A stretch of DNA of 64,000 nt, from positions 372,001 through 436,000 of the forward strand of contig JAIVFI010000026.1 of assembly GCA_025558095.1 (NCBI GenBank), in the 5' to 3' direction. Numbering within the stretch: position 1 is the first letter of the stretch; each line of letters opens with the position of its first letter. This stretch comes from Hyaloraphidium curvatum SAG 235-1 (Eukaryota > Fungi > Monoblepharomycota). A program made the translations under genes and the position numbers. This document shows positions 3,612 to 46,610 of the stretch, in pieces. Under the pieces are notes generated by a model that was given only the letters and a program-made list of their open reading frames with translations, ran no database searches and was not told where the DNA came from.

Positions 3612-3765
3612 CAGGAGATCACGGAACAATCGCACTAAGGTACCATAATGATTACGGAGGCGTCATTTTTCTGGCCGGCCGAACGCTTTAATCCATTTTA
3701 TTGCTTCCCGTGGAGCGCATTTTTGTGAGTTCTTTATTCTCATTGCTCGCCTCATCGTGTCCAGG

Positions 3766-5247
3766 ATGACGGAAGCGATTCGTGGAGCAGACATCGATGT
3801 GGACGAGGTCCAGGAGTTTCCGATTAGGCTGGTAAAGCGCCCGTCGCAGCGTGACCGCAAGAACCAGAAGAGCATTCGCTCGAAAGCGAGAGCTTGGGAA
3901 AGGGTCGATGAATTGATTGCAGCCGGAAAGAAGCGCTTTCCCGGTTTTGCGTCCCTGGACGGGCGCTTCCTGGAGTGGTTGAAAGCAAATCCGAAGGCGA
4001 ACGGTTCTGTCCACAGTCCCGTAACGCTTCTGCAGTATCACACCGTATCCGGAATCATTGGTCGTTTGATCGTAGGAAAGAAGCGCGGCATCGCTTACGC
4101 AGAGACCTTCCTTCAACTCCCAGTGGACGATCCTTCCGTGCAAAACTTCCGGGTTTGGTTGAACTACTACACACCCGAACGCATCTGGAGGCTTGTCCAG
4201 AAACACACATCCAATTTCGCTTCCCAGAGCGCATTCGCAGTGGCTCTCCTGAAGATGTTTACCTTTCATCGTGGATCCTCCGACCACGCAGACGTGATGT
4301 TCTTCACTGACAAAATCAAGGAGCTAGGGAAGATGACAGCTGTTGCAAAGCGATTGCAGCTGCCGCAGTTGGGCGCGGGGGACCTTCAAGTCGAATTTCG
4401 CACAATTCGAGACAAGGTACGGAGCTACGCGGAAAACATCCTCACGCGTTTTGAAGCAGCACCACCTGACGTGATTCAGAGAGGACTATCCGAAATACAG
4501 GCAGCTGCCATCACATCGCTTTACGTCCTGCACCCGCCTTCGCGTGCAGACTACGCATACCTTCGATTCACTCCCTCGAAAACCCACAACTACTTTGATG
4601 GTGGGGAGAACAGTCTTGTGTTTGTTAATTTCAAAACGGCCGCTACGTACGGTGTTGTTCGCGTCAAGATTGAGAATCCGATCGTGAGTCGACTTTTGCA
4701 CTTGCTCGCTGACAAGATCCGATCGCAGAATGGGGATCGCTACGTGTTCATGTCGCGACCCGGTAAGGCTTTTTCGACTGAGGCCGGGTTTGGACAACAC
4801 GTCGGCTACTGTTTCCGGCGTGTAACCGGCACGGCGCTTCGTCCTACCGCACTCCGGCGTCTCTATTTGAGCGATCACGCGAACGGCACCGTTGATCAGA
4901 ACGGGGAACACCGAGTGCCTTCCATGGAGGAAAACACGTCGCTTGCACGCAACATGATGCACAGCGTGGGCATGCAGGCATCCTACCGTCGGATGCCAAC
5001 GCTAGATCACATTCGGTCTACGATTCCTACCAACGACCCTGCGGTGCCCCGTGACGTTGCTTCGGCTGCAATCGAAGCTGTTGGTCGGATGCAGGCCGTG
5101 CAAGCTGACGGGTCAAGGGAGCAGCGCCTGGCGTGGGAAAAGGCCAAGCGCGACCTGGTGCGAAAAGCGGTGGAGATCGACGAGGCGCGTGAAGCAGCCG
5201 CTAAACGGCATCGTGAGAGACTCCACCAGAGGCGGTTGTCACAGTAG
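3766..5247 (+). CDS. Tyrosine recombinase/integrase (PLV/virophage/NCLDV-type)
   Basis: HPPSRADY (R), NFKTAATYG (K), RPTALRRLYLS (second R; H of HxLR absent), LARNMMHS...QASY (H, Y nucleophile). Intronless. Confidence 0.85.
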   Translation: MTEAIRGADIDVDEVQEFPIRLVKRPSQRDRKNQKSIRSKARAWERVDELIAAGKKRFPGFASLDGRFLEWLKANPKANGSVHSPVTLLQYHTVSGIIGRLIVGKKRGIAYAETFLQLPVDDPSVQNFRVWLNYYTPERIWRLVQKHTSNFASQSAFAVALLKMFTFHRGSSDHADVMFFTDKIKELGKMTAVAKRLQLPQLGAGDLQVEFRTIRDKVRSYAENILTRFEAAPPDVIQRGLSEIQAAAITSLYVLHPPSRADYAYLRFTPSKTHNYFDGGENSLVFVNFKTAATYGVVRVKIENPIVSRLLHLLADKIRSQNGDRYVFMSRPGKAFSTEAGFGQHVGYCFRRVTGTALRPTALRRLYLSDHANGTVDQNGEHRVPSMEENTSLARNMMHSVGMQASYRRMPTLDHIRSTIPTNDPAVPRDVASAAIEAVGRMQAVQADGSREQRLAWEKAKRDLVRKAVEIDEAREAAAKRHRERLHQRRLSQ

Positions 5248-5763
5248 TCGCTCCGCCGAATAGATCTCCGTGAGTTCAGGATCTTCCATCATGTCGCGGG
5301 CAACCAGTCTTAGCACGGTGAGAAGCCCGCGCCGCCAACTCAGTGTCCATTTGTTGGCTGGCGACGTGAGAATGTGCAAGACGGTTTCGTGATCCTTGAT
5401 CCAATCAAATGTGCGAGGAATCTCCGTCCACTGCAATGTGGAAGCCACCCGCATCAGTCGCTTCCACGTCTTGCGGTCGGCAAGGTCCCCAGTGACGTCG
5501 CGCGACGCACGGTGGAGCCGACAGAGCAGCATCAACCTCCGACGGTAAGTCAGTTCCGTTGAGTTCGACCAGACAAACTCTTTCGCTCCCGCCGCGGCAA
5601 GCAAAGTGATCGGATGGCTTGCAATCGCCGCCTTGTCATCAGCCGTTTGTGCGGGACGGCCGAATCGTGTCGCTTGCGGTTCGACGGCTGCCATGGATTG
5701 TGCTGCGATCTTGACGTCCATCGGAGGATGTATTTCTGGCCCCGTAGACGGCATCGGGGCCAT
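5239..5763 (-). CDS. Small helical protein, paralog 1 of 4 (recombinase core-binding-like)
   Basis: WSNSTELTYRRRL...EIPRTFDWIKD...WRRGLLTVLRL, pattern shared with 6193-6630 and 6678-7160. Confidence 0.7.
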   Translation of the reverse strand: MAPMPSTGPEIHPPMDVKIAAQSMAAVEPQATRFGRPAQTADDKAAIASHPITLLAAAGAKEFVWSNSTELTYRRRLMLLCRLHRASRDVTGDLADRKTWKRLMRVASTLQWTEIPRTFDWIKDHETVLHILTSPANKWTLSWRRGLLTVLRLVARDMMEDPELTEIYSAERLL

Positions 5764-6220
5764 GGGTTACACCAAAGACGATGCGCTATCGCGTGCCATC
5801 GCTAAGGCAGCAGAACAGGCCGGTTGGAGCCCTTCGTCGACCGATCTCAATCGAAAGGCCATTCTCCGTGTTGCAGCGCTCTACACCGCAACTCGCACCC
5901 TGAGACAGGAAGGCAAGCGGGACCCAGATTGGATTCTCATCGATCGCAAGGCCCGCCGGCTACGCGGCCCGTTCTCGACGTCGGTGCTCAGAAAACCTCG
6001 CTTCTTCAAATGGCTGTCGAAGCGAGCACCGTGGACCGCTCCACGTATCAGAAACGTAAGATGGGCGTTGATGGCAGCCGCCTACGCCGCCTTTGGCGTG
6101 GGTGCAGACGAGGTGTTTTCCCGGCGGGTGGCGGCGATCCGAAGGATTGAAAAGGTGGTCTTGACGAGTGGGAGGCGCGGGTTGACGATGGTTCAACAGG
6201 GGGAAGAAGAGGAGGTCTGA
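5762..6220 (+). CDS. Small helical protein, paralog 2 of 4
   Basis: MGYTKDDALSRAIAKAAEQAGWSPSSTDLNRKAILRVAALY matches IAKSIGKAAKAAQWTKAS...LRRIAALF and ALDRAARELRWSAAT...ILRLAKLY. Confidence 0.65.
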   Translation: MGYTKDDALSRAIAKAAEQAGWSPSSTDLNRKAILRVAALYTATRTLRQEGKRDPDWILIDRKARRLRGPFSTSVLRKPRFFKWLSKRAPWTAPRIRNVRWALMAAAYAAFGVGADEVFSRRVAAIRRIEKVVLTSGRRGLTMVQQGEEEEV

Positions 6221-6630
6221 GGCGTTGACTGGCGCCTTTGGCGGTACGCTGATTCGTTGTACTGCAGGGCCAGATGCGGATCGTCCAAAAAGACATCAGA
6301 AATGAGGCGAAGAACCTGGAAGAGGTTGGCTCTCCACCGGATTCTGTGCGGATCGTCGTCAGCACTCAGAATGTGGTCCAGAACATGCACGTCACGGATC
6401 CATCGGAAGCTGGCCGGGAGCTCATTCGCGGGGATCATGCGGGCAAGGGCGTCGATGTCGTCAAACATCGGAGTTGATGCGTTGCGTTGTCGGAGTGCCT
6501 GGAAGGCCGCGTACAGCTTGGCGAGACGGAGGATATGGTTCTTTGTGTTGCGGTGCGTGGCCGCACTCCAGCGCAGCTCACGGGCTGCACGATCAAGCGC
6601 AGTGTTGTAGAAGTGCGTCGCCGCAGTCAT
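6193..6630 (-). CDS. Small helical protein, paralog 3 of 4
   Basis: RAARELRWSAATH...ELPASFRWIRD...WRANLFQVLRL...DPHLALQY. Confidence 0.7.
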   Translation of the reverse strand: MTAATHFYNTALDRAARELRWSAATHRNTKNHILRLAKLYAAFQALRQRNASTPMFDDIDALARMIPANELPASFRWIRDVHVLDHILSADDDPHRIRWRANLFQVLRLISDVFLDDPHLALQYNESAYRQRRQSTPQTSSSSPC

Positions 6631-6677
6631 CGATGAGGGTTGAACGGCAAAAACGTCTTCCTACATCTGCCGATTCG

Positions 6678-7160
6678 TCAACCGAGGGCGTCCGGTTGGT
6701 CTGCGTAGTCACCAATTGCAATCTGCGAAGTCTTTGCCGGAAGTGCCTGCTCTTGCTTGAGGTTCCGGGCGCTGTACTTGGATGCGAGGATCCGGTCGCC
6801 GAGGAAGAGTTCCGCAGCCATCTTCAGGGCAGAGATCGACCCGCGTTTGTACGACGGCGATCCCCCAAGCCGAGCCACGATGCCTTGAACGACTCTCCGA
6901 TCCCTCAGCCACGCAAAACTCTTTGGCAATTCGCTTCTGGGCAGCCTTCGTGAGATGTCGTCAATCAACTCCCACGATTCGTCGTCAAGTTTGTCGGGTT
7001 CAACACTGTCCAAGCGATTCCGCAGCTTGCGAAGAGCGCAGAACAGGGCTGCGATTCTCCTCAGCCTGTGCGAATAGGAGTCGGCCGACGCTTTGGTCCA
7101 TTGCGCCGCTTTGGCGGCTTTGCCAATGCTCTTGGCGATGAGATCCGGTTCCTTCGGCAT
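6678..7160 (-). CDS. Small helical protein, paralog 4 of 4
   Basis: KAAKAAQWTKASADSY...ELPKSFAWLRD...YKRGSISALKM...DRILASKY. Confidence 0.7.
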   Translation of the reverse strand: MPKEPDLIAKSIGKAAKAAQWTKASADSYSHRLRRIAALFCALRKLRNRLDSVEPDKLDDESWELIDDISRRLPRSELPKSFAWLRDRRVVQGIVARLGGSPSYKRGSISALKMAAELFLGDRILASKYSARNLKQEQALPAKTSQIAIGDYADQPDALG

Positions 7161-11835: not shown

Positions 11836-13442
11836 TCACGCCCGCGGGCGCTTCGGCGCCGTCTTTGCTGCTGCGGCTTTGGTCGCTTTGGCCGCTTTTC
11901 TCTGTTTCGCGGGTTGCGGCGACGCACTGCGTTTCCGCTTGGCCCCTGCAAGGGTGATCGCTTCGGCAGTCCGGCCGCGCTTCACCCGTCCCGCAGTTGC
12001 CTCCGTCGGAGACCCGCCGCGCTTCCTCTTGCCGAGGGCCTCTTGCACGGCCTCCCGGGAGCGCTTCGAACGACGTGCGGCGGGGCCGGGGCTGGCGGAG
12101 CGCCGGCGCTTGCCAGTGACCTCTTCGTTTCGGGGGCCGTGCGGGGGCGCTTCGCCTTGGCCTCGGCGGGAGGCGGTGTGCGGGATCGTCCGCGCTTCGG
12201 GATGGTGCGGCGGGGCAGGGCGGTGCCGGAATCTTCGACCATGTCCATCGCGTCGTCGTTGGAGGGGTCGTCGGGCCATGCTCCCGGCGATTCGATGGGG
12301 GAGGTGCGCTTCGTCCGGCGTGGGAGTGCGCTGCCTTCGTCCTCAATGAATTCGACAAAGGAAGCTTCGTCGTCGGAGTCCGTGGCGGCATCGGGCGCGG
12401 GCGCAGCGGCGGTGGCAGGCGTCGGATGGGCGGCAGCGGGGCCGGTGGGCGTCGGGGAGTCCTGTGCCTCAGCTGCTTCGGCCTCGTCAGCCGCGTCCTG
12501 CGCGCCGGGCTCAGCTGGGCCGTCGGCGGCGTCCCAGCCCGCGGGCAGATCCCAATGATCCTCTGCTTCGGCCGGAGCTTCCCAGAACCGTGCCTCTTCG
12601 TCTCCGCCGGCGACGCTACCGGTGCGGGCGTCGGGCTCTTCGCGCTCTTCGCGGTTTGCGAGAGCCGCAGAGAGGCGGGCGACTTCTTGGCGGCATTCTG
12701 CGAGCGCGGCGCTGAGCTTGGTGTTCTGCGCGTCGGACCGGGAGCGGTGGGTCTCGCACAGTGCCAAGCGATGCCTCAGCTCCTGCATGTCCCGGGTCCC
12801 CTCTGCCATCACATCGCGCAATTCTCCAATCGCCTCTTCCTTCTCGGCAACAAGAGCCTCGCAACGTCCCAGCCTATGGCGGAGGGCATCCCGGTCCGCG
12901 GCGGAGGCCTGGGCGTGCCTCAGCGCGTCGCGGAGAGCGGCTGCATCCGCTTGGTGCGCTACTTTCTCGGCGATCATCGTATTGAGCTCGTCCTCCAGCT
13001 CTCCCATGGCCCGTTGGGCATCGGCCAGCTCTCTCTTGCAAGCGGAGGCGTCGCCGGCTTCGATTTGAAGCGCACGGATCGTCTGCTGGTATTCCGACAG
13101 CCGGTGACGCAGTGCTTTCGCCGACGTGTGCGACGTGTGTGGCATCGATGCGATCTGCTTCTGCAGCTTGCGGATCTGCTGCTGGAGTGCGCGGACGGAG
13201 GCTTTCGTAGGCTCGGCAGGTGGGGCGGCGCCGGGCGCGGCGGCGGCTGGCTCCTGGCGCGGCGGGTCTTGTGCTGCCACCGGGGTTGCCGGCGGCGGTG
13301 GTGCACGCGGGGTCCGCGGGACCGTGCGGTTTTCGCAGTGGACATGTTGGTAGCAGTACCTTGAGCCGTCTTGGGCGTTGCGGCTGCAACGGTTGCGATC
13401 GCCCGATGATTTGATACAGGCGCATTGGACTGGTTCGGACAT
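11836..13442 (-). CDS. Cys/His-motif coiled-coil protein with basic tail (probable frameshift near 12130)
   Basis: N-terminal CACIKSSGDRNRCSRNAQDGSRYCYQH (a motif common in large DNA virus proteins), then a long coiled coil. A K/R-rich tail (KRRRSASP...KAAKATKAAAAK) continues in another frame (ORF 11836-12279). Confidence 0.6.
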
Positions 13443-14025
13443 CGTCGTTGGCCGTGTGGATCGGGAATAATTCCATCTGCGTGGTCGCGGTGGGGCGGGG
13501 AAAGGGGCGGTGTGACACTTTTAGGTCCGTGACACATGGAACTGGGTCGCCACGCGGCGACCAGCTAGCTAGTGCAATGAGCCTCACGACCACGGCACGC
13601 CGCCGACTCCGTCTCCGTCTCCAGCCGACCGGTGACGGCCGCAACGGCGCTTCGTGCGTCTCCGACGTTTGTCCGCCGCCTCGCACGGGACCGGGGTCCA
13701 CAGAGCATCCGTCTTCGTCTTTGCGTGCGTGCCAGGTAGCGGCGATCGGGTGTGGGTGGCGGCCATCGGCGCGGGTGGTGCAGATCGGTGCTGGTGGCGG
13801 CGATCTGCGCGGTTGAGCGGCTTTGGCGGCGTCTGCGTCTGCGGGAGGCTCGTCGTGCCTTTGCGCCATGCGTCGCCTCTGCACTTCCGTCAGACCACGC
13901 GGCCACGGGAAGCGCAGCCCGTGCCATTGACCGCACTGGCTGCTCCGGACAGCTTCGTACACCCCTCTGGATCACGGTGGCGTTCATTTCGGGCTTTTTT
14001 GTGGCAACCGGGTGCTCATCGGGCG

Positions 14026-14223
14026 ATTCGGGGCATTCGGGGTATTCGGGGCATTTTTTAGGGCCCCGGGCCTAGGCCGAAGGGCAGATTCAAGGATGGT
14101 ATATACGGAAAAATCTTTTAATTTGTATCCATTATAAAAAAATACCCCTGATCTCCGCGAACCCCCAAAGCCACCTGGCGCCGACCCCCCAAAAAATGCC
14201 CCGAATGCCCCGAATACCCCGAT
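14026..14223. promoter_or_regulatory. Origin-like block 1: inverted 9-bp iteron arrays flanking an AT-rich core
   Basis: (ATTCGGGGY)x3+ATTTTTT at 14026-14059, inverted copy at 14191-14223, AT-rich core ~14096-14145. Lies downstream of primase-helicase 1. Confidence 0.6.
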
Positions 14224-14546
14224 GGCCAGAGGAGCGGCCCAAAACCGCCGCCCGAAGCACAGCAAGTAGCCACGAAGCCCCCAGCATGAAAGCGGGCTGA
14301 AAAATGCGCCCCGGACGGGTACGATCTGGGCGCCCGGACGTCCGAATTTTGGCGGGTCAACGGCCCACCCCACAAAATGCCCCGACGCGCACCCCCGGCG
14401 TGCCCTGCTCCAAAGCAGCTGTGCAATCAATGAAAAAGACACCAATGCACCTTTCTGTGAGTTTGAGGCGGGTTCGGAAGCGTCATGCGGCCGAAAGGCG
14501 CCCCTTCGTCAGCTGGTCGCTGGATGGTGAGTCATCAATCCGTTTC

Positions 14547-17500
14547 TCACTGGGCTGCAATGATGCGCCTACAGAGCCCCGTGTACTCGGCAGTTTTGTT
14601 CGCATCTTTCCTTTCTGTGCGCTCGACACGGCCTCCATCGACTTCAAACGCCTTGCGCGCAATCAGCTTTGTCATGTGCCTACCAAAAGCGTTCATCTTC
14701 ATCCGCTCCTCAATCGGATAGAAGTGTTCTTCGTAGTCGGCAAAGAGCTCCCTCGCTGAGACGGATTCCCGTGCAATCCGAGCGGCATCGATGGAAACTT
14801 CGTAGTTCGTAAGTATCCACCGCAGCACAGCATCGTTATCGTTCAAGTGTTCATCCGTAGTCTTCTTTATACTGGGAGGCGGTGTGAGGCCAGTCCCGTC
14901 TCCCGGTCGCTCCAGGGACGACTGGATGAAAGCATCCTTCCACTTACGGTATCCTTCAATGAGCCATTTCATCATCGCCATGCGCATCTCGGGTTTCTTT
15001 AATTCTCGCCCGAGTCCAGAGTCCTTCATCTTCCAGTATTCCTCACCAGCAGCTGCGGCCGGGTCGTCGACGAACTTTGTGCGGTACGGCACATTCCGTG
15101 CCCTACGAGTGATCGCGTCGCTTGTTGCATCAAACTTTGGAATATCGTTGATGAAAACCCACATCTTTGCGATTAGCGAAAACTGAACGGTGTTGCCGTT
15201 GAGAAAACGCCCAGAGGTTCGATTGCCTGATGTGTAGACGTTGAAGCGCTCCACATTCAACTTGCGCACCGGTCCAGATTCACTGATGATAACACAGCGC
15301 TTTCCGCGGAGAGCCATCAATTCTGGAGTCGCCCGCTCGACATCCCCCACATGGTCACAGAGGATGCCGATCTTGGTTGAACCGGCGTAATCTCCCAGTG
15401 CGTATTCCATGGCCTTGCCTTTGACGCCCTTGCCGTTGGATGCGCTTCCGAGGCAAAAGTGCATCACCTGTTCGAAGCATTCCCCGGTGATACTGTATCC
15501 CGATGCTCGGTGGGCGTATTCGTACTCTTCTTCGACGGGGTAGATGTCCTTCATGATTTGCACAATGCGCTCGTAGTCCACGTTTGGAACTTCATCCAAA
15601 GGAACAAAGTCGTATCCGGTGGTGTAGCTCAGCATCCATTCGCGACGTCCACCTGGGTAGAAGAGCCCCGTTTCCAGATCGTACGTCCCGTTGTTGAACT
15701 GAACTGCGTATGGCTTCGTATCAAGCAATTCGTCGAACTGGCTTGCATCGACGCCCATCTCTGCAGCCAGTTGGTTCACAACATGCCCCTGAAACGTGTC
15801 CGACTCAAGGTCCATCAGCACTTTCCGTATCTTCGCGACCTTTGCTGCCAGTAGGTCTTTTGCCTCATCTGTCGCACCATTCTCACTAGCGTCGCGAAGC
15901 AGGCGTTCATAGACGCGAAGAGCAAGAACAAAAGGCGAATAAGCCTCCTCCTGTCGAATGTATCTGAGCACAGCATGGCTCCCGTCCTTCTTCTTGGTAG
16001 GATCGTAGCGCCAGCGTGACCCCGACCAGTGCCCCCATGCACCGGAGGCTTCCGAATAAATGAAGGGACATCCTTCTTTCGATTCGAGAGGGTTGTTGAT
16101 GGCCAAGAACTTGGAGATCGATGAGTGTCCGCCGCTCAATGCTTTCAGAAGAGACCTGTTCCATTCGGGCCCCCGATCGGGATCAACCGTGACGCCGTCT
16201 GCTTCAAATTCGTGCCAAGCCCCCCCTTCATCGACCGCGCCGTAATTGTGGTTGTGCACGACGGTCGTGTTTTGGTTGATGACCATGAGCAAAGAGCAGT
16301 GCAAAGCAGCCCGATCCCGTGGTATCGGCATGGGCTCTTTGAACAAGTTGCGATTGCACTGTGGGCAAGACAACTGGACCCCCAATCCAGTCACCGAACA
16401 GTTGCGCGGCGTCTTTTTGCGGCAGAATCCGCACTTCTTTGTTCCCTGTACGCGCGCAACGGTCCCTTCAAAACCGGTCATGGTGCTGTGGTTGCGCAGA
16501 AACACCTCCTTTGGCTCGCAGTTGGCGATCGACGAGGTGAGTTCGATGGCCTCCTGGTGCGCAGAAGACGAAAATTCGATGGGCTCCATATTCCAATTCG
16601 CGCCCCAAATTGCGGCGGCGTCAGCGGCCTTCATTTTCGCCTTCTTGCTCTCTCCGGAGTCCCATGTAACGACCACGTCTTTTCCCTTCGCAATTTCGAC
16701 GAAAAAGCCCTCCCCAACAACGCGGTAGGTCAAAACACCATCAAGCATCGTTTTCGAGACCGTCTTCCGTGCAGACAACACGTGTGGTCTCTTGTCGAAC
16801 TTGCATAGAGCACCCACTGCCGACTGAAGGACCGCCACCTGCTCGGCATCTTCCATTCTGAACATGGGAACCGAAACCGACTCTGACGATACGCTGGCGC
16901 AGTCTTGCTCCGCAAGGCCACTCGCTTCAACCATCACGCAATCACCGTCAGTGTCGTTCGCACCTGCAACCACTACAGCAGGTTGCGAGGCCTCGTCCGA
17001 TTCCATGGCAGGTTCAGCCTCCATGTCATTGGTGGTCTCCACATCGCCGGCAGCGACTTCTATCGCCACCCTCGACGCCCGCACGGCCGCGGACGGACTG
17101 TACGCGATCGGATCGGCCGCTTCTTCTTGGTTCCGCACCTTGCGTTTCAGGCCGAGAAAGAGCACCCGAACGCGAAGGCATGTCTCAGTCTGTCCCAGGA
17201 TCTCCTTTCCTTTCTTCAATGTCATGTTCTTTTCGCCGATGGTGACTCGCAGTCCATCGCTCAACGGGACCAAGATGTATGGGAAGTCGCCTGTGCAGAA
17301 GCGGATTGCAGTGTAGTCGACGCCCCCGACCCTCCGTGTGCCAAACAATGCCCGTTCGACCGCATGTGCAACAATCCGCTGCTGCTCCGTGCTCATGCTC
17401 TGATTCTCCGGAAAGATCCGCGTCAAGAGAGCTGTCGGGACGGTGAGTTCGAGCACCTTTCCCGCCTCCTTGCACTCTGTCGCCTCGCAGATATAGACAG

Positions 17501-19478
17501 CACTGCCGCGCTCGTAAGTTTTGATCAGGCGGCGCGCAGTTTCTTTGTCGACATCGTCGCCGTGGAGCCAGCCAGATGCCTCTCCCTTGTGCGCACATTG
17601 GCGGTCTCTCAGCCTCACCCACACGCAACGGCTCCCGACCTCCCCTGTGGTACCGCAATCCTTCATTTGAAGCGGGAACCAAGCCAGAGGATTGTCCTCC
17701 ATCTCGCCCGCCCCACGCCCGCAACGGTAGTAGTCAAGGAGATCCTCGCACGCGCGCGCCTGATCCTCCGTGAGCTTCCCATACGCGCCGGATGCGTTCC
17801 ACTTCGGAATGTATCCAATTTCGACGCCCCTGCTGTGCATCCGCTCAGCGCGTTCCGCGCCGTAGTCCGATTCCAGCTCCTCCTGCGTCGGACGAATCAT
17901 CAACGCCATGATCCGGTCCACCGTCGCTTCCAGTGCCTCACCGGTCTCCAGCGACATGGGAAGGTAAAACGTCCCACTGCGCTTCCTCGACAGCGGCAGC
18001 CGCTTGTTCGCGAAATCGACGCGGAACACGCCCGTGTCGATGGAAGCAAAGCGTCCCATCTCGTCGTCGGCGAGCAACTTCTTGGCACGCTCCGCAATCT
18101 CGTGCATCGCCCTCAGACTCGCAATTCCATTCGGCGCGACGATGTGCAACTTCCCGGGCTCCACGGCGTTGAACTCCGCGGCAAGCCCGGCGGTGAACCC
18201 GTTCGCAATCTCGCTGCCCTCCGCTTCGCCCAGAACGGCAACGCAGAAATCTCTGCACGCCTGTTTGAGCACTCGAACCACGGCACTGGCGAGCTTCAAG
18301 CGCCCCGGCGCATCCGCAAAAGCACTGTAATCGCCCCCGTCGTCGCGCCTGTCCACCTCTGCAAAGACGCGCGCGTACTTGAGCCCGCGCGTCAGTTCGG
18401 AGAAGCACAGGACCTTGGAGTCCGGGTGGTTGCGATGTTCGTCGATCATAGCCTGTGCAAACGTCCGCAGGGCCGCGCGGTCGTTCGGCACCCTGATCTT
18501 GCCGGGGATGCCGGCACCGGGGCCTGCGAGAAGCAGAGTGTGCGTGCTCTGAGCGCTGTCCTTGACGGCATGCTGCCAGACGAACTGGGCGAGCGCGCTT
18601 CGCTGCCTCCCAAACGGGACAAGCACGTCGCGGCTGCCGCTGCCGCTCCCGGCGCCGGCACCACCGCCCGCGGCGGTCGCGCGCTGTCCCTTGCCGGATT
18701 TGGAGACCTTCTTTTGCACGGCGGGGTGTCGCCCGAGGATGACGTCCACGAGTGCATCGGGCATGCGCGCTGGAAGGCGGTCAAAGAGCGACGCACCGGG
18801 ATCGAACCGGTAGTGGGCAACGGTGCCGTCCGGGAGACGGTAGCTCGTCGGCGGCGCGTAGATGATGCCCCCTGAGCCGCGCGTGTCGATGTCTAGCACC
18901 TTGCCGTCGATGCTGAATGCTTTTGCCGTAAGCGTCTCTCCTGCAAGCCTGTCGTCGTTTGCAAAATAAAGATGGCGCCCTTTTCGCGTCGTCACCGTCA
19001 CGGTGGCGATGCTCTCGACGCTGGGGATGCCGACGGTGTGGAGGAGCAAGTCCAGATCAGCCAGATTGTCTCCGTCGATGACGAAAATCCCACCCGGCTC
19101 CCCCGTGACGAGGCATAGCCCGTTGTGGTGTTGTTTGACCTCGCAAACCGTGCGATACCGCTGCTCATCCGACGGGTTGTCGCATTTCTTGACGATTTGG
19201 CCCTTCGCGTCGGTGTAAGACGTCATGTGGAGTGGAACGACCCGGATCCCCATGGCCCGAAACGCGGATGCCGCCGAAGCCACTGTGAGCTCTCCGGATG
19301 GGCGTGGTACAAGCACCAGGGAGGAGGCGCATGTCGTGTCCGTTTCGTCCCGCTGCGGAGTGGTTTCGATTTCCTCCTCGGCAGCCACTGACTGGGCCTT
19401 CCCCGGTGGCGAAGGTGTGAGCGACGCCGCGAAGGACGGGGCATCCGATTCGTCGTCGCTAGCGTTTGTCCAATCCAT
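14547..19478 (-). CDS. Prim-Pol + AEP primase + D5-like SF3 helicase fusion
   Basis: Prim-Pol IFVIDGD/GRHLYF/IDTRG..GIIYAPPT; AEP RVFAEVD/KLHIV/IDTGVF; CxxC pairs; D5 FNNGTYDL; Walker A GSASNGKG, Walker B VIISE, motif C VFIND, AITRR. Confidence 0.9.
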   Translation of the reverse strand: MDWTNASDDESDAPSFAASLTPSPPGKAQSVAAEEEIETTPQRDETDTTCASSLVLVPRPSGELTVASAASAFRAMGIRVVPLHMTSYTDAKGQIVKKCDNPSDEQRYRTVCEVKQHHNGLCLVTGEPGGIFVIDGDNLADLDLLLHTVGIPSVESIATVTVTTRKGRHLYFANDDRLAGETLTAKAFSIDGKVLDIDTRGSGGIIYAPPTSYRLPDGTVAHYRFDPGASLFDRLPARMPDALVDVILGRHPAVQKKVSKSGKGQRATAAGGGAGAGSGSGSRDVLVPFGRQRSALAQFVWQHAVKDSAQSTHTLLLAGPGAGIPGKIRVPNDRAALRTFAQAMIDEHRNHPDSKVLCFSELTRGLKYARVFAEVDRRDDGGDYSAFADAPGRLKLASAVVRVLKQACRDFCVAVLGEAEGSEIANGFTAGLAAEFNAVEPGKLHIVAPNGIASLRAMHEIAERAKKLLADDEMGRFASIDTGVFRVDFANKRLPLSRKRSGTFYLPMSLETGEALEATVDRIMALMIRPTQEELESDYGAERAERMHSRGVEIGYIPKWNASGAYGKLTEDQARACEDLLDYYRCGRGAGEMEDNPLAWFPLQMKDCGTTGEVGSRCVWVRLRDRQCAHKGEASGWLHGDDVDKETARRLIKTYERGSAVYICEATECKEAGKVLELTVPTALLTRIFPENQSMSTEQQRIVAHAVERALFGTRRVGGVDYTAIRFCTGDFPYILVPLSDGLRVTIGEKNMTLKKGKEILGQTETCLRVRVLFLGLKRKVRNQEEAADPIAYSPSAAVRASRVAIEVAAGDVETTNDMEAEPAMESDEASQPAVVVAGANDTDGDCVMVEASGLAEQDCASVSSESVSVPMFRMEDAEQVAVLQSAVGALCKFDKRPHVLSARKTVSKTMLDGVLTYRVVGEGFFVEIAKGKDVVVTWDSGESKKAKMKAADAAAIWGANWNMEPIEFSSSAHQEAIELTSSIANCEPKEVFLRNHSTMTGFEGTVARVQGTKKCGFCRKKTPRNCSVTGLGVQLSCPQCNRNLFKEPMPIPRDRAALHCSLLMVINQNTTVVHNHNYGAVDEGGAWHEFEADGVTVDPDRGPEWNRSLLKALSGGHSSISKFLAINNPLESKEGCPFIYSEASGAWGHWSGSRWRYDPTKKKDGSHAVLRYIRQEEAYSPFVLALRVYERLLRDASENGATDEAKDLLAAKVAKIRKVLMDLESDTFQGHVVNQLAAEMGVDASQFDELLDTKPYAVQFNNGTYDLETGLFYPGGRREWMLSYTTGYDFVPLDEVPNVDYERIVQIMKDIYPVEEEYEYAHRASGYSITGECFEQVMHFCLGSASNGKGVKGKAMEYALGDYAGSTKIGILCDHVGDVERATPELMALRGKRCVIISESGPVRKLNVERFNVYTSGNRTSGRFLNGNTVQFSLIAKMWVFINDIPKFDATSDAITRRARNVPYRTKFVDDPAAAAGEEYWKMKDSGLGRELKKPEMRMAMMKWLIEGYRKWKDAFIQSSLERPGDGTGLTPPPSIKKTTDEHLNDNDAVLRWILTNYEVSIDAARIARESVSARELFADYEEHFYPIEERMKMNAFGRHMTKLIARKAFEVDGGRVERTERKDANKTAEYTGLCRRIIAAQ

Positions 19479-29578: not shown

Positions 29579-32500
29579 ATGGCCGTCGACGAGCAAGGGC
29601 GGGCGCCGGAGCCGGAGCCGGAGCCCGAGCCGGAGCGGGAGCGGGAGCGGGAGCCGGAGCACATCTGGGCAGAGAACGTCCGTCGTGCCGCTGCCGAGCT
29701 GAACGACGGGACCGCGCCTCGGCCGACGGAGCTGCTGACGCTGCTGCAAAAGTATGCTTTGATCAAGCCCACGACATTCACCATGTTCGGCCCGCCTGGC
29801 CACACCGGCGCATTTGGCATTGCCGCGGACGACCGCATGGACCTCGCAACGTCGTACTACGTTGCTCGCTACCAGCGCTACCCGCCTCCTCGGCTGTACC
29901 TCAACGAAACGCTTCCCCGCGGCACGCCGATGAGACTCTACTTTGATGTGGACTTTCCCTCCGAGGCGACCCTCGACGCGTTCTTGACGGTGTCTGGACT
30001 CCCCGACGAAGCAGCCTTCCTGACCGCGCTTCTGGAAGCCACGGACAAGTGCATTGAGACCGGTGCCTTCTTCCCGCGCGACGAAGCCGAGGAGACGCGC
30101 ATGTTCTTTCGCCTCGTCTCCAAACGCCGCGGAAAGCGTGGAAAATACCACATTCACTACCCGCACGCGATCGTCGACGCTCCGTACGCCAAGTACTTGG
30201 CCCAGGACGCCGGGCGGCGGTTCATGGCGTCGCTGCCGGGGGGTGGGGCTGCGTACATGGGCCTCCCCGCGCCGGAGCCTACCGGGTCGCACGCTGGCGC
30301 CGAGGCGGAATCCCCGGCCGCTCCTGCGACGTGGGATGCGACGGCCAAACTGTTCGACACCGGAGTCTACACCAGCGGACTGCGCGTCCTGGGCAGCTGC
30401 AAGAGGGATGTGACGGACCAAGGATACGCGCTGCTTTCTGAGGACTTCCAAGAGATCGACCTGCCGTCGTTTGCCCAGTTCGAGGCCACGCTCGTCAGCG
30501 TCAACCGCGGCGACCCGTTGCAGGCACGCGTCGCCGAGGCTCTTGAAGCCGATTCGGGCGGCGTGGCCCCGGGTGGGGACAACTACGGTGAAGACACTTT
30601 CATCCAATACGACGGCACGGCCATCCGCCTGCGGAACACGGATGATTCGCGGGCGGAGCTGGCCTTGCGCGCGATCGACTATCTCCGACGCGAAAAGCGC
30701 AAGCCGGAGCATGCCTTTCACGCGCACGAAGGTGATTTCGTGCCGAGGCGCATCACAACCAAAAGCGCGGACGAGAAGAAGGTCGGCAAGAAAAGCCCGC
30801 CGCTCAAATCGGTAATCGTCGATCTGCACGATGTGTACTGCATCTACAAGGGCGGGAACCACAAGCGGGCACGCGAAGGTCGGGCGTGCGTCTACATCTG
30901 TTTCAGCGGCAGGAAGTGCAGCATCCGGTGCCTGGACGAGAGCTGCAAGACGAAAGCAGGCAGCAAATGGATCAGTGTGGCTGTCTGCGGGGTCAACATC
31001 TGGGACTTGGTGGGGCCTGCGACGCCCCCGCTCCCGGCCCCCATCGCCCCCCGACCTGCCCCCTCCGCGCGTCTCCTGATGGAAGAGAGCGACGCCGACA
31101 ATGAGGCCGACGAGGAGGCCGACGAGGATCACGCTGCTGGTGCGGGCGACGACGACGATCCCGTGCTGCCCCCCGCGGTCGATTTTGGTACTCCTGCGCC
31201 GGCGACGCCTCCAGCGGCTCCGGCCCGTGCCCGCGCGGGACCCGCCGCGCGCCCGCACTCTGCACCGCCCCCGCCTCCGGGGAACGCCGCCGAGGAGGGT
31301 GCGGGAGCGCTGCTGGTGATCGACAGCGCGGAAGGGACCGCTGTGGTGGACGCCGCGCGCTACGTCGTCCGGAAGGCGCTCTCGGACGCGGCCAGGAAGG
31401 CCAAAGCCAACGCCACCAAGCAGGCCCTCAACGACGCCGTCGCCCTGGTGACCCAGTCGGCGTTCTACGTCAAGAAGACCAAGGTCAACGGGAACGTCCT
31501 GTACACCATCCAGGACCAGCACGGCGCATGCGTGGAGATGCGCCAGCGGACGCAAACCCACGCGGTCGTGCGGCACACAAGGATCGCCGAGGTGGAGGTC
31601 GCACTGCGGTCGGCGGACGCCAGGGCCATCTGGGGAGGCGATTGGTCTGACGAGGTGCTGCTTCTTTCTACACGGGCCCAGCAGGAGGCCCTGCAGATGG
31701 TTTCGGACTACGCCAACTGCTCGCCCACCAAGGTGACCGTGGAACGGATGGATCTGGAGCCCGGATTCAAGGGGACCGTCGCCAAAGTCCACAACAAGGA
31801 GCAGTGTCCGTTTTGCGAAACGGAAACGCGGCGGGACTGGACTTCGACGGCCCCGGGGCTGCAGATGACATGCCCCGACTGCGGGAAAAGCATGTTCCGC
31901 AAGGCGATCCCGATCCCGGACACGTACCCTGCGCTCCGCATGTCGCTCACGCAGATCAACATCTCCAACCTCACGGTCATCAACCAGACCGTGGAGAGCG
32001 GACGGGCGCAAAGCGCCGAACAGATCGTGGGGCAATTCCTGGGAGACGGCATCACGATCGACCCGTCCAGGGGCGCAGAGTGGAACACACGTCTCCTGAA
32101 GGCCTGTGGCGGCACGCACGCAAGCGTCGCTGCGTTTTACGCCTGCAACAACGACCTGGAGAGCCCCGCCGGCTGCCCCTATGTCTACTCCATCGGAACC
32201 CAGAGATGGGCCAAGTTCAGCACGCGCTGGTACTACCGCACCGGCGTCAAGACGACCCCGTTCGCGTTGATCCGAGGACGGGATGCGCTGGAGCCGTTCT
32301 ACAAAGCCCTCGCCGCATACGACTCGGCAGACCCGGAAACCCGTAAGGCGCGCCAGGAGCAGATCAGGAGGGTGATGACCGACATGGAGGACGACCGGTT
32401 CCAAAAGGCGGTCGTTTCTCAGCTGGAGAAGGAGCTGGAGGTCACCCCGGAGGCGTTCGACGACTTACTGGACACAAACCCCGACATTCTGCAGTTTGAC

Positions 32501-33712
32501 GACGGCAGTTACGACCTGCGTACGGACACGTTCTTTCCTGGCGGTCGTCGGGAATGGTTCCAATCGAAATCTGTGGGATACGACTATGCCGAGGTCACTC
32601 GGGTGACGCCCGAGCAGGACAAGGAGGTCGAACGTATCGCCGCGGAGATTGTCCCCGACGACGAGCAGCGCCGGTACACGCAGAAGGCTCTCGGACTGTG
32701 CGTGTCCGGCCATCTCAACCACCGTGCACACTTTTGCATCGGATCGGGTGGTAACGGGAAAAGCATTCTTTTTGGTGGCACTGGGTCTGCTCTCGGGGAA
32801 TATGCGATCGTCATCGACGCTGCCATATTCACCGATCAACTCGCCAACTTGGAAGCGCCCTCCCCACAGCTCATGCGTATCAAGGGCACTCGTCTGGTCC
32901 TCATCACGGAATGGAACAAGAAAACATTGGAAGTGGCCCGCTTCAAGAACTACGTCGGCGGCGAGAAGATATCCGGCAGAAACCTCAACGGGAACCCGGT
33001 GGTCTTCAAGGTCATGGCAAAGTTCTTCGTCGCCTGCAACAACGAGATCCAATTCGAAGGGTCGGATGGCGGCGTCGTGCGCCGGTTTTGTCAGCTGAAC
33101 TTCCCCGTGCGTTTCGTGGACGAACTGGACCCGGTGGAGGAGGCGGCGGCGGTGAAGGGCGGGAAGAAGTACTTGCGACAGAGGGACCTCACCCTGGAGC
33201 GCCGATTTGAAGAGGAACTCCGGCCTGCCATGATGAAATGGCTCCTGGCGGGGTACCGCCTGTACAAGGCCGAGGGGTTGAACCCCCCCAAAGCCGTTGT
33301 GGAAGCTACGGCTCAGGGTTTGGATGCAAACAACTCCGTCTTGCGTTTCCTGGAGGGTACCTGCGAGATTGGCGTGGGCGGCTTCGTGGAGGGGGCAACG
33401 CTGCATGGTCTGTATGTGGCGAGGAGACGGGACAAGATGTCGCCTGTTGAGTTCGGCAGGCAGATGGGAGCACTCCGCAAGGAAGGACGTGCTTTGTATG
33501 GCAAGGTGACGTCGGAGAAGAAGGGGGGCAAGACGGTGTACGTCGGCCTTCGCTTGAAAGGACCGGAGGCGCGCCTGCAGGACGAGACGACTACCTCCAC
33601 GGGCGCCCGGCCCGCCGAGGCGGAGCGGGACGAAGCAGCCGCCCCTACCGGAACGGGCACTCAGGAAGTGGATGTTGCCAATGCAGTGGAGATGGAGGTA
33701 GACGCATTGTGA
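29579..33712 (+). CDS. AEP primase + D5-like SF3 helicase
   Basis: LYFDVDF, KYHIHYP, FDTGVY..GLRVLGSCK, Zn-binding Cys; LQFDDGSYDL; Walker A GSGGNGKS, LVLITE, VACNN, GVVRRF. Confidence 0.9.
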   Translation: MAVDEQGRAPEPEPEPEPEREREREPEHIWAENVRRAAAELNDGTAPRPTELLTLLQKYALIKPTTFTMFGPPGHTGAFGIAADDRMDLATSYYVARYQRYPPPRLYLNETLPRGTPMRLYFDVDFPSEATLDAFLTVSGLPDEAAFLTALLEATDKCIETGAFFPRDEAEETRMFFRLVSKRRGKRGKYHIHYPHAIVDAPYAKYLAQDAGRRFMASLPGGGAAYMGLPAPEPTGSHAGAEAESPAAPATWDATAKLFDTGVYTSGLRVLGSCKRDVTDQGYALLSEDFQEIDLPSFAQFEATLVSVNRGDPLQARVAEALEADSGGVAPGGDNYGEDTFIQYDGTAIRLRNTDDSRAELALRAIDYLRREKRKPEHAFHAHEGDFVPRRITTKSADEKKVGKKSPPLKSVIVDLHDVYCIYKGGNHKRAREGRACVYICFSGRKCSIRCLDESCKTKAGSKWISVAVCGVNIWDLVGPATPPLPAPIAPRPAPSARLLMEESDADNEADEEADEDHAAGAGDDDDPVLPPAVDFGTPAPATPPAAPARARAGPAARPHSAPPPPPGNAAEEGAGALLVIDSAEGTAVVDAARYVVRKALSDAARKAKANATKQALNDAVALVTQSAFYVKKTKVNGNVLYTIQDQHGACVEMRQRTQTHAVVRHTRIAEVEVALRSADARAIWGGDWSDEVLLLSTRAQQEALQMVSDYANCSPTKVTVERMDLEPGFKGTVAKVHNKEQCPFCETETRRDWTSTAPGLQMTCPDCGKSMFRKAIPIPDTYPALRMSLTQINISNLTVINQTVESGRAQSAEQIVGQFLGDGITIDPSRGAEWNTRLLKACGGTHASVAAFYACNNDLESPAGCPYVYSIGTQRWAKFSTRWYYRTGVKTTPFALIRGRDALEPFYKALAAYDSADPETRKARQEQIRRVMTDMEDDRFQKAVVSQLEKELEVTPEAFDDLLDTNPDILQFDDGSYDLRTDTFFPGGRREWFQSKSVGYDYAEVTRVTPEQDKEVERIAAEIVPDDEQRRYTQKALGLCVSGHLNHRAHFCIGSGGNGKSILFGGTGSALGEYAIVIDAAIFTDQLANLEAPSPQLMRIKGTRLVLITEWNKKTLEVARFKNYVGGEKISGRNLNGNPVVFKVMAKFFVACNNEIQFEGSDGGVVRRFCQLNFPVRFVDELDPVEEAAAVKGGKKYLRQRDLTLERRFEEELRPAMMKWLLAGYRLYKAEGLNPPKAVVEATAQGLDANNSVLRFLEGTCEIGVGGFVEGATLHGLYVARRRDKMSPVEFGRQMGALRKEGRALYGKVTSEKKGGKTVYVGLRLKGPEARLQDETTTSTGARPAEAERDEAAAPTGTGTQEVDVANAVEMEVDAL

Positions 33713-33762
33713 ACATTCAATACAGCACACCTGCGACACGTCATTGCAACCACTCTTGGTGG

Positions 33763-34512
33763 TCGCTCCACCGCCGCTCCGACCCCCTGGAAGATGCATA
33801 GCACCCCCGTGTGCATCTCTGGGCGGCGCACAGGCCCGATGGGAGGGCTGCCGGGCGAGCCACGGGCGGTTTTTCATCTTCCGGCATCTTCCAGCATCTC
33901 CCAACATCTCCCAGGCCTTCCACCCGCCTGCCCGACGCCCGCGCGGCCACCCAAACGCTTGCCCAGACTCGGGACCATCGTTTGGAGCAGCCGGGACGGG
34001 GCAGGGGCGTTTTGGCGCGTCGGGGCAGTGTCGGCGGAGCGCTGGAAGATGGATCCTGGAAGATGGCCCCGGCCCCCCCTCCCCGAACCCTCCTGCTCCG
34101 GCTAAACAATACTGTAGTCTGTTTTTGTGTAATGAGGAGCTTGCATGCAATTCTCAGTATAGAAAATTTACTAGATAGTGGTAGTGAGTCACGTGACCGG
34201 GCCATGGCCAGTGGGCTCCCTGTACAGCCGACCTGGGCCAAAAACATCTTCCATCTTCCCTGAAACCCTCCCACGCGCACATGCTCGCCCCACCGCCGCT
34301 CCGACCCCCTGGAAGATGCATAGCACGCCCGTGCGCATCTCTGGGCGGCGCGCTGGCCCGCTGGAAGCCCTGCCGGGCGAGCCACGGGCGGTTTTTCATC
34401 TTCCGGCATCTTCCAGCATCTCCCAACATCTCCCAGGCCTTCCACCCGCCTGCCCGACGCCCGCCCGGCCGCCAAAACGCTTGCCCAGACTCGGGACCAT
34501 CGTTTGGAGCAG
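33763..34512. repeat. Origin-like block 2: ~228-bp direct repeats with 10-bp iterons around an AT-rich core
   Basis: 33763-33990 is nearly identical to 34285-34512; each holds four CATCTYCCRR units. Inverted CTGGAAGATG copies at 33787, 34042, 34056 and 34309. AT-rich core ~34102-34175. Confidence 0.75.
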
Positions 34513-34851: not shown

Positions 34852-35168
34852 GCGGGAGTGGTTGAGCGGCGAACGGCGGCGCCGAGTCGGTGGCGGCAGT
34901 GGCGACAACAGGCGCGGCGGCGGTGGCGGTGACGACAGCTTCAGTAAGGCGCTTCCGAGGCGACGGAGACCGGTCGACGTCCTTCGGCGCGGGCGAAACG
35001 CGCGTTCGCGCGGGAGGGGTTGAGCGGCGAACGGCGGCGCCGAGTCGGTGGCGGCAGTGGCGACAACAGGCGCGGCGGCGGTGGCGGTGACGACAGCTTC
35101 AGTAAGGCGCTTCCGAGGCGACGGAGACCGGTCGACGTCCTTCGGCGCGGGCGAAACGCGCGTTCGCG
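34852..35168. repeat. 158-bp tandem duplication
   Basis: Two near-identical consecutive copies starting at 34852 and 35010. Confidence 0.9.
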
Positions 35169-35418
35169 CATGCGCGAACGCGCGCTCCATCGGGGGGTGG
35201 CTGAAAATCCCCCGGTCGACCGGGGCCTGGGTCGCGCTATGCGCACCAAGTGCGCGCACCGCTATACGCACCAAGTGCGCGCACCTCAAGTTTCGCCCCG
35301 GCGCGCGCCTTCCCGGGCGGTTGTGAAGCGAGCATTGTCCGTGCGAGTCCAACTTCCGCTCCTCGCCCGCTCCGCTGCCGTGCGCTAATAGACTGGCCCG
35401 TCGCCCAACAGCGAAACG

Positions 35419-35886: not shown

Positions 35887-36154
35887 ATGTGTACACCTGA
35901 CGGCGAAATTCATTCGCATCCGCGACTTCACCGTCAAACGGATGTGAGAACTCGGGGGCTGCAGCGACGGCAGGCGAGAACGGGGCGCCGAACCGCTTCA
36001 TCCACAAACGCCCGACAGACCGCAGCCACTCTTTTCGCTTGCGCCTCACATGCGCGCGTCACACCAGTGCGCCCCCTGCCCCCCCCCCTGCTCCACACAC
36101 CTCCGCAACCCCCGCACATCGCGTGACGACCGCTTGGGCACTTTGCCCCTCGCC

Positions 36155-36267
36155 TCCTGCGCCGTTATGCGCGCGCCTGCGCCTTGCCTCGCATCCTGCG
36201 CCGTTATGCGCGCGCCTGCGCCTTGCCTCGCATCCTGCGCCGTTATGCGCGCGCCTGCGCCTTGCCC
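36155..36267. repeat. 39-bp minisatellite, ~3 copies
   Basis: CCTGCGCCGTTATGCGCGCGCCTGCGCCTTGCCTCGCAT repeated. Confidence 0.85.
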
Positions 36268-45400: not shown

Positions 45401-46218
45401 GGGCCGACGCCTTTGCTGTACTGCTACCTGCGCTGTACCGGGTACTACGGCGTTCGGAGAAGCGGGGTGTGATCCCTCCCCGCCTACTCTCCATCGTCGA
45501 ACGCGACGCGGGCACGAAGAGTTCCTTCGACGACTACGCGGACCACGGCTACGTTTTCCCCCCGGAGCACGATCTGAACTTTGTGCGGGATTGGGTCGCT
45601 ACCGAGACCTTGCGCAAGATCGGGGCCAGTGCGAGCACTGGGGGTGCCGTGGAGCTGATACTGGAGTTCCTCGGCAGCAGTTTCTCCGCAGGGGCCAAGT
45701 GCGAATGCGAGCCATCGACACCATCCAGGCTGACGTTCAGAGACCTCCCGATGATCAGGATAACAACCACGGGGTTTGCGGCGACGGGGAGTGCGGCTGC
45801 GAAGGAGCAACTGTGGCAGTCTGCGCTCCACACAGCCTGGCAAGGTCTTGCATCTCGGCGAGGCAGCTGCCGCGGCAACTGTGGGAGCGCCACCTTCCAT
45901 CTCACGGGAGACGTCATGCCCCCCCTTCAGGTCTTTTCCCTGGAACCCGGTGACTACCAGATTGACCTCCCTGCTGACATCACCATCGGTAAGAGCAACT
46001 TCCACTGGATTGGGACAATCTATGGTGGGGGCAAGCGTTTGTCGACACGGTGGGAGGGATCGGACGGTTTGGTCTGGCAATGGAGCAACGGACGCATCTT
46101 TCCGTTCAGTGCTCCAGATACAAACGACACGGTGGCATGGGAGGAATTGAGCGCGGGGGAACGCTTTGGGTTGAAGGGCGGAGCCAAGGCAGAACTTGTA
46201 TTCTACGCTCTTGCTTGA
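42418..46218 (+). CDS. Mutator-like (MULE) DDE transposase with SWIM finger; intron 43050-43100
   Basis: GIDTS (D), MTLDK (D), LCYYH (CxxH), TNNHTE (E), SWIM-like CDVPAC...CKHWFA. A 51-nt GTGAGC...CTGAC...AAG intron joins ORF 42418 in frame and restores a C..C...H motif. Confidence 0.85.
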
Positions 46219-46393: not shown

Positions 46394-46410
46394 TCAACTT
46401 TTCCGAGAGC

Positions 46411-46610
46411 GGAGAAAGGAGATGGCCTGCACGGGAGCACGGGCAGAGCGAAAGAGGAGAGATGGCCTGCACGGGAGCACCGGCAGAGCAGAGAAAGAGA
46501 GATCACCTGCACGGGAGCACCGGCAGAGCAGAGAAGGAGAGATCGCCTGCACGGGAGCACCGGCAGAGCAGAGAACGAGAAAAGGCCCGCACGGGAGCAC
46601 CGGCGGGGTG
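46411..46610. repeat. 40-bp minisatellite, 5 copies
   Basis: ACGGGAGCAC recurs at 46431, 46471, 46511, 46551 and 46591. Confidence 0.9.

Follow-up and report, generated by a model that had tools for sequence, protein, structure and literature searches.

Start-site choice by the D5-type helicases of eukaryotic DNA viruses is, to our knowledge, poorly defined. The layout described below, in which short repeats converge on an AT-rich centre behind a primase-helicase gene, is already known from bacterial and archaeal elements. According to the accessible part of PMC9371898, the SaPI origin lies downstream of the gene and consists of 6 to 12 iterons; an AT-rich region has two or more of them on either side, running in opposite directions. 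The SaPI Reps bind iterons by a C-terminal winged helix, with two hexamers believed to load at the origin (PMC9371898; bioRxiv 10.64898/2026.10.17.759575; both as excerpted); in SaPI5 PriRep, the origin-binding C-terminal domain comprises residues 676 to 790 (PMC9371898). In the alpha protein of phage P4, primase and helicase are fused and a winged helix binds the repeats of the origin, and ORF904 of pRN1 joins a Prim-Pol domain, a helicase of the SF3 type and a winged helix; its origin, just behind the gene, can fold into a long stem capped by a large loop (PMC4234260, as excerpted). For D5 helicases of fungal or giant-virus elements, we found no paper describing iteron origins. In its accessible text, PMC11296320 only hypothesises that inverted repeats beside the helicases of Polinton-like viruses are origins; the word "iteron" is absent from that text, as is "origin of replication" from the accessible text of PMC13533422.

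Here, we analysed a stretch of 64,000 nucleotides from Hyaloraphidium curvatum SAG 235-1 (the window), in which a preliminary description had picked out a repeat array at 14026–14223 (block 1) behind a primase-helicase gene (hel1) and proposed it as the cognate origin of that helicase. Contigs of three runs were compared with the window: X1, which is RNA by the tool's guess, has spliced joints and is uninformative on transcript ends or levels; X2, which is DNA; and X3. The flank at 49.6–64 kb carries Rap-GAP, WD40, RING and GFA genes, and X1 contigs show GT-AG joints; on sequence grounds the window is eukaryotic.

Block 1 lies within a virus-like insert of about 45.7 kb (628–46400, the right limit being approximate), which has imperfect inverted ends with GCGCATAGT units. 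The insert encodes an A32 ATPase, two D5-type helicases (hel1 and hel2), a second Prim-Pol, a ligase fragment, an F-box protein and a Zn2Cys6 protein with a Zn_clus domain, and a MULE-like (MULE/SWIM-like) transposase at 43195–46218 adjoins its right end. No inverted end matching those of the insert was found near 43 kb, nor was a target duplication found at the insert ends; the contigs of all three runs abandon the window sequence at 627. The insert is possibly a giant Mutator element with viral cargo, or a virus-transposon fusion. It also contains a tyrosine-recombinase-like ORF (3757–5247), recognised from motifs by eye and with no match in Pfam or PHROG; one relative, at 66% identity, is a protein that carries the name Hyaloraphidium curvatum, and a related recombinase gene was seen on another long contig. 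This match and two near helicase relatives named from Gonapodya sp. make a zoosporic fungus the likely host. In being integrated, and in its inverted ends, A32 ATPase, tyrosine recombinase and D5-like helicase, the insert resembles the Polinton-like virus and Mycodnaviridae inserts of zoosporic fungi, as partly set out in PMC11296320 and PMC13533422, and the helicase-adjacent repeats proposed as an origin (PMC11296320) add to the likeness. It differs from them in that its arrays are internal, not terminal, and in that no capsid or PolB gene was recognised in Pfam and PHROG scans of its main ORFs.

Several further features of this region were recorded in passing. Spliced minus-strand contigs at 4505–4705 cover the recombinase-like ORF and derive from a variant copy with about 95% identity, which we read as antisense transcription and additional copies of the element. 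Four short ORFs at 5239–7160 alternate in orientation, share similar wording (AIAKAA..W, LR.A.L..A), have no database matches and look like a small paralog family. An ORF in the 21057–21728/20171–21439 region, adjoining the lone Prim-Pol domain, starts with MGAAVS and has a C-terminal hydrophobic stretch; by eye, it is like the myristoylated membrane proteins of large DNA viruses. Past the right end of the insert lies a 40-bp tandem array of five copies (46406–46604).

The gene in front of block 1 is the primase-helicase gene that the preliminary description had taken it for. hel1 (14547–19478, minus strand) encodes 1643 amino acids with a Prim-Pol domain (residues 75–240), a zinc-finger-like segment, D5_N, an SF3 helicase and a C-terminal helical domain, and it is the likely cognate initiator. 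The C-terminal 584 residues were predicted with a pLDDT of 86.9 from an alignment of 111 sequences, against only 34 from the single sequence. The model matched ASFV C962R (Z 31.7) and vaccinia D5 (Z 30.4), and it aligned with SaPI5 PriRep (Z 26.8, rmsd 5.4, 394 residues aligned) as far as residue 747, that is, into the C-terminal DNA-binding domain of PriRep; the alignment with D5 likewise extends into the C-terminal domain of that protein. A winged helix at the C-terminus of hel1 is predicted as likely, and no more firmly, because the model is weak over its last 30 residues (pLDDT below 70). C-terminal profiles of relatives matched residues 1479–1609, a range that includes helicase helices; confidence in the wing is low, and a Pfam search of the C-terminal domain gave no match. 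A second AEP domain, suspected by eye at residues of about 360–520, was dropped as it was unsupported by the profile that detected the AEP domain of hel2.

hel1 retains Walker A, Walker B, motif C and the arginine finger, with K1350, E1400, N1444 and R1459 present. It carries the changes K1413N, G1417S and G1346A at positions where 99%, 97% and 94% of 109 relatives have the consensus Lys, Gly and Gly, respectively, and it differs at other positions too; hel2 keeps the family consensus at the equivalents of these three residues. A quick tree built from 89 helicase domains placed hel1 and hel2 together on a single long branch (support 99), on the side of the eukaryotic viruses (support 93, not starred), with the giant-virus D5 loci nearer to hel1 than the prokaryotic ones at that same support. 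The nearest relatives (P0038–P0048), which combine Prim-Pol or AEP with a zinc finger and D5, occur on 6–8-kb contigs and in Gonapodya records, two near relatives carrying the name Gonapodya sp.; together, these helicases are perhaps a family of small eukaryotic replicons.

The repeats of block 1 were present as had been described, and more of them were found. Three ATTCGGGGY units start at 14026, 14035 and 14044 and are followed by T6 at 14054–14059; with one degenerate unit in front of them, they form the gene-distal arm (14017–14059, plus strand) of TCGGGGYATT units at 9-bp spacing. The mirror array claimed for the other side is also there, as the gene-proximal arm (14191–14222, minus strand) with A6 at 14191–14196 and three exact units ending at 14222, although the outermost of these is one base short of the 9-mer. 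The arms 14028–14076 and 14174–14222 are 82% complementary across a spacer of 97 nt. The 10-mer TCGGGGYATT has seven exact matches in the 64-kb window, all within 14028–14385, against 0.14 expected, and none of 100 shuffles reached seven or more. Three exact units lie left of the centre and four right of it, in addition to three or four degenerate ones. An "extra partial iteron" had been noted at 14374; a unit is indeed there, but it is a full exact 10-mer (14376–14385), isolated within TTTGGAGCA ... GCGCGTCGGGGCA (14376–14414, minus strand). Likewise, the array is real but extends beyond the limits 14026–14223 first assigned to it: two-mismatch units occur at 13989 (within 13986–14000, plus strand, with a T-run on its distal side), at 14019 and at 14141, and a loose unit on the gene side (14297–14313, minus strand) was recognised by eye and in the repeat listing. 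The whole array is situated 162–530 bp downstream of the hel1 stop, and its main arm begins 325 bp past the stop, farther than in most loci of the panel described below.

About 200 bp between inverted arms, in an insert that also encodes a MULE-like transposase, might suggest a MITE inserted behind hel1. We consider this extremely improbable: the units extend past the arms on both sides, the window contains no second copy, the ends on the transposase side carry another repeat, and direct repetition at the arm ends is limited to chance words of 2–4 bp found after trying many registers, so that there is no acceptable target duplication.

All gene-side units of block 1 face one way and all far-side units face the opposite way, and the array therefore converges on 14095–14144. 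This segment corresponds to the AT-rich core of about 50 bp that had been reported within GC-rich DNA: it is the 50-mer of lowest GC content in the window (20%, against 62% for the insert), and by nearest-neighbour energy it is the least stable segment of the window at 30 and 50 nt and the second least stable at 80 nt. We regard it as a predicted unwinding element. It contains TATA-like words at 14100 and 14133 (plus strand) and an ATTAAA on the minus strand, and it adjoins, on the gene side, the degenerate unit CAGGGGTATT with a T7 run (14136–14150, minus strand; two mismatches at 14141). An Rfam search of 13400–14600 gave no matches at E 1. A further tandem array, of 4.5 copies of 19 bp, lies left of block 1 at 13735–13821. 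A GC skew peak near block 1 was discarded as origin evidence, as it follows the low-complexity genes to the left and the skew is flat at the fourfold sites of hel1 and hel2.

The second helicase of the insert has an arrangement of the same kind. hel2 (29579–33712, plus strand; 1377 amino acids) is a paralog of hel1, 35% identical over 746 amino acids, with an AEP-type primase domain, D5_N and an SF3 helicase. Behind it, in block 2 (33760–34512), CTGGAAGATG/CATCTTCCAG units converge on an AT-rich core (about 34102–34181) that is flanked by two 231-bp direct repeats and ranks second in AT-richness among the cores of the window; a single unit of the hel1 type occurs at 34020. P4 has a repeated element, crr, which the two 231-bp repeats recall. 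The core lies 427 bp from the stop of hel1 and 433 bp from the stop of hel2, and the two least stable segments of the window at 30, 50 and 80 nt are these two cores. When 26 insert ORFs were scanned, a 50-mer of at most 32% GC within 600 bp downstream was found behind hel1 (+401) and hel2 (+407) and behind none of the other 24. A scan of the whole window for 7-mers present twice on the left and, inverted, twice on the right gave four clusters, the two AT-rich ones being blocks 1 and 2. Farther on, beyond block 2, there are tandem arrays of two 158-bp copies (34852–35169), two 25-bp copies (35235–35285) and three 39-bp copies (36148–36266).

The main repeats of blocks 1 and 2 differ, with 4 of 10 bases in common, which is within chance. 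Both blocks, however, contain TTTGGAGCA followed by GCGCGTCGGGGCA in the same order and orientation, and this common pair suggests common descent. TTTGGAGCA has four matches in the window against 0.5 expected (628–636, 14406–14414, 33981–33989 and 34503–34511); singly, the two motifs are of modest significance in shuffle tests (1 of 100 for TTTGGAGCA, 9 of 100 for GCGCGTCGGGGCA). Compared by sequence, the two blocks point to common descent in which position, core and convergence were retained while the main repeat changed. The hel1/hel2 pair is one event, not two, and its members are not independent.

The TATA-like words in the core, together with the CGG-N6-CGG-N6-CGG pattern at 14020, 14029 and 14201, could be taken for a promoter or enhancer with factor sites, for example for the Zn2Cys6 protein, that serves the ORF at 11982–13442 or represses hel1. 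CGG-N6-CGG-type spacing suits some Zn2Cys6 proteins, and a Zn_clus domain is encoded in the same insert. However, the triple CGG pattern has seven more matches in the window and is missing from the repeat of block 2, the nearest next ORF start is about 650 bp away, and no other insert ORF has a comparable core close downstream. A scan for sigma-70 sites was blank, as was one for terminators, eukaryotic promoters being outside its reach. Regulation of transcription is, in our judgement, a very unlikely function of the block. The preliminary description had named a MITE or a promoter as what the block might turn out to be, and beyond the TATA-like words nothing was found in favour of either.

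The occurrence of TTTGGAGCA exactly at the left edge of the insert (628), as well as in both origin-like blocks, is an observation in its own right, and it bears on a further reading, in which block 1 serves the tyrosine-recombinase-like protein encoded in the insert as a site of recombination or resolution, or is a relic of a genome end. In the accessible part of PMC11296320, inverted repeats by the primase-helicases of Polinton-like viruses are proposed as recombination substrate and origin alike. The insert ends, however, bear another repeat, the core is not palindromic, and two different repeats for two helicases would be left unexplained. Sites of the lox/dif type are short, and a 97-nt spacer with tandem units is unlike them. 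A recombination site is thus highly unlikely.

The contigs of run X1 bear on the region between hel1 and block 1. A 53-nt GT-AG intron (14520–14572) spans the end of hel1, and its splicing deletes the stop, giving a protein of 1638 amino acids, five residues shorter, with a new stop at 14509–14511. The spliced X1 contig runs out of hel1 over this intron down to 14167 (covering 14167–14519), and the gene-proximal arm therefore belongs to that contig as hel1 3' sequence. The end of the contig at 14167 was set aside as a transcript end, since contigs cannot show ends. No contig covers 14001–14166, and contigs of X2 and X3 are absent from block 1. Two other X1 joints, 17882–17940 and 19021–19093 in the N-terminal region of hel1, break the frame when used and affect both halves; splicing of hel1 is of host type, with a harmless C-terminal intron and two frame-breaking N-terminal joints, and the latter could reflect a primase-less helicase or cryptic splicing. 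To the left of block 1, the contigs of X2 and of X1 (in spliced form) match the window until 13598 and 13564, respectively, and then continue in different sequence, while the X3 contig stays with the window. This suggests that another copy of the neighbouring gene is preceded by different upstream sequence, with a swap point some 400 bp to the left of block 1.

That a spliced contig, RNA by the tool's guess, includes the proximal arm is what one would expect if block 1 marked the 3' end of the helicase mRNA, through a long hairpin or an AT-rich stretch directing cleavage and polyadenylation as in mimivirus, where a hairpin rule applies to mRNA 3' ends (PMC4402537, as excerpted). The core also has ATTAAA and a T7 run on the gene strand, and the minus-strand RNA of block 1 folds at −125 kcal/mol (z −7.6), although any inverted repeat gives a low folding energy. 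Were such a rule in force in the insert, other genes should follow it, but an inverted arm of more than 14 bp within 600 bp downstream was found for 1 of 26 insert ORFs, hel1 itself. The arm behind hel2 is 12 bp, and hel2 has its repeat array and core without a long stem. Moreover, a hairpin needs neither tandem units nor outlying units nor the same layout behind bacterial helicases. We therefore judge a 3'-end signal to be quite improbable as the explanation of block 1, and the two roles, 3' end and origin, may coexist.

To see how general the layout is, we scored helicase loci for arrays in which a 7-mer is repeated two or more times on either side, the two sides being opposite in orientation, between −100 and +700 of the stop. 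These 800-nt spans were adopted after 600-nt spans had missed hel1, because the latter cut off its far arm. The prokaryotic panel comprised 92 P4/D5 loci in 32 clusters, 22–29% identical to hel1. Convergent arrays were found behind the helicase gene in 16 of the 32 clusters (18 of 34 with hel1 and hel2), a figure from a biased sample, as the helicases in the alignment that supplied 80 of the loci were known beforehand to have arrays; among named records picked from tblastn lists blind to arrays, 2 of 6 were positive (L012 and L014). Control spans, the window genes included, were positive in 0 of 34 cases within the gene, in 0 of 33 at a greater distance downstream and in 2 of 28 upstream, and 2 of 680 shuffled sequences scored (600-nt spans). 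The repeats are unlike between clusters and alike within them, and the GC content of the array core was below that of the locus in all 14 prokaryotic rows listed. L008 closely resembles block 1, with three 9-bp TTCGGACAG units and a T-run; L005 has an array behind its stop, and in L006 an array was seen by eye that the strict scan missed. As a separate observation, GC-rich loci (L005, L007, L008, L009, L057, L075 and L092) often have an alternating CACGCGCGCG-like run at the array centre, not strong AT-richness.

The giant-virus panel gave a different result. It comprised 74 D5 loci in 33 clusters (6 of 80 having been dropped for lack of a stop or for a short downstream region), and arrays were found behind the gene in 3 of 33 clusters, against 0 of 33, 1 of 31 and 3 of 33 in the controls, which is background. 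One giant-virus locus, L124, has a perfect inverted repeat of tandem units about 20–175 bp behind the called D5 stop. Because 16 of 32 prokaryotic and 3 of 33 giant-virus clusters were positive, the layout appears, from these sequences, to accompany self-loading replicon modules and not the core D5 genes of giant viruses.

The preliminary description had named the lack of such an array behind homologous helicases as a point against its reading; arrays are present behind hel2 and in 16 of the 32 prokaryotic clusters. It had also looked to co-variation of the iteron with the helicase; the repeat does differ for hel2 and between prokaryotic clusters. A close homolog locus of hel1 and block 1 was not found in five pattern or protein scans, all blank or yielding chance matches, and any co-variation therefore rests on one non-independent paralog pair and on distant relatives. 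The pattern scan of viral contigs, the iteron pattern scan and the genome contigs were blank, and the back-translated helicase motif had no match in viral contigs. Two candidates (L001 and L002) were chance matches in phage portal genes, and two others (L003 and L004), found in metagenomes with that motif, were unrelated; all four were left out of the counts.

In relation to the known systems, block 1 is closest in layout to the partly described SaPI origin: an array of 6–12 repeats behind an SF3 primase-helicase gene, convergent on an AT-rich centre and about 200–400 bp long, which agrees with the earlier statement that iterons flanking an AT-rich element are a known origin layout (PMC9371898). 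The fold match of hel1 to PriRep, a helicase with a C-terminal DNA-binding domain (Z 26.8), extends this likeness. It differs from SaPI in its eukaryotic host, its viral gene neighbours and the presence of two modules in one element; its units are of 9–10 bp, in tight tandem and with T-runs, against 5–6 bp in the SaPI units as excerpted; it begins 160–325 bp past the stop, not immediately downstream, and binding is predicted; and hel1 is about twice as long and spliced. Given the eukaryotic flanks, the spliced contigs and the 9–10-bp units, the element would work like a SaPI or phage-inducible chromosomal island but is not one. From P4 it differs in that the P4 primase is of the Toprim type and the insert helicases are of the Prim-Pol/AEP type. 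With pRN1 ORF904 hel1 shares its domain order, the winged helix of hel1 being predicted; the pRN1 stem-loop origin, as far as the excerpt of PMC4234260 goes, has no iterons, whereas tandem units make up the stem of block 1 and a long stem is missing from block 2. The D5 proteins of poxviruses and giant viruses and ASFV C962R provide the best structural and PDB sequence matches of hel1 and the nearest side of the tree, but hel1 and hel2 have their own long branch (support 99), and 30 of 33 giant-virus clusters have no array behind the gene.

Taken together, what we observe is a set of converging repeats around the least stable core of the window, an SF3 helicase gene in front of them and, behind the paralog, an equivalent layout made of another repeat. 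We conclude that block 1 is probably the replication origin of the D5-type primase-helicase hel1, working in the manner of SaPI and P4 with a self-loading helicase. The proposal that block 1 is the cognate origin of hel1 is thus favoured by the SF3 gene, the paralog with its own array and the arrays in 16 of 32 prokaryotic clusters, and it is weakened by the background level of arrays in giant viruses and by the deviating residues of hel1. By analogy with SaPI Rep and PriRep, the winged-helix-like C-terminal domains of a hel1 hexamer would read the 9-bp repeats, and one hexamer would be loaded on each side of the core. The AT-rich core between the repeats would open after loading, the primase domain (either hel1's Prim-Pol or hel2's AEP) would lay primers, and host polymerases would extend them, probably bidirectionally. 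The insert would carry two helicase-origin modules derived from one ancestor, whose repeats diverged along with the helicases. Whether block 1 and hel1 are active at present is uncertain, because near-invariant residues of hel1 have changed and a contig that is likely RNA crosses one arm; the integrated copy may be a relic. On a reading that we consider rather unlikely, but worth stating, the insert is an active composite of Mutator and giant-virus-like parts and a eukaryotic bi-replicon: it would copy itself in the nucleus of the fungus from two origins of plasmid style, each with a dedicated self-loading D5 helicase that initiates sequence-specifically, and would swap helicase-origin modules between copies.

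The background result for the core D5 loci of giant viruses limits the claim to the mobile helicase module; it would not be a feature of giant viruses generally. Within that limit, two paralogous helicases, each followed by a separate array built of a different repeat, make sequence-specific origin recognition directly testable crosswise. If the origin reading is true, it would extend the self-loading origin of SaPI and P4 to a eukaryotic integrated element and would provide a candidate replicon for early-diverging fungi.
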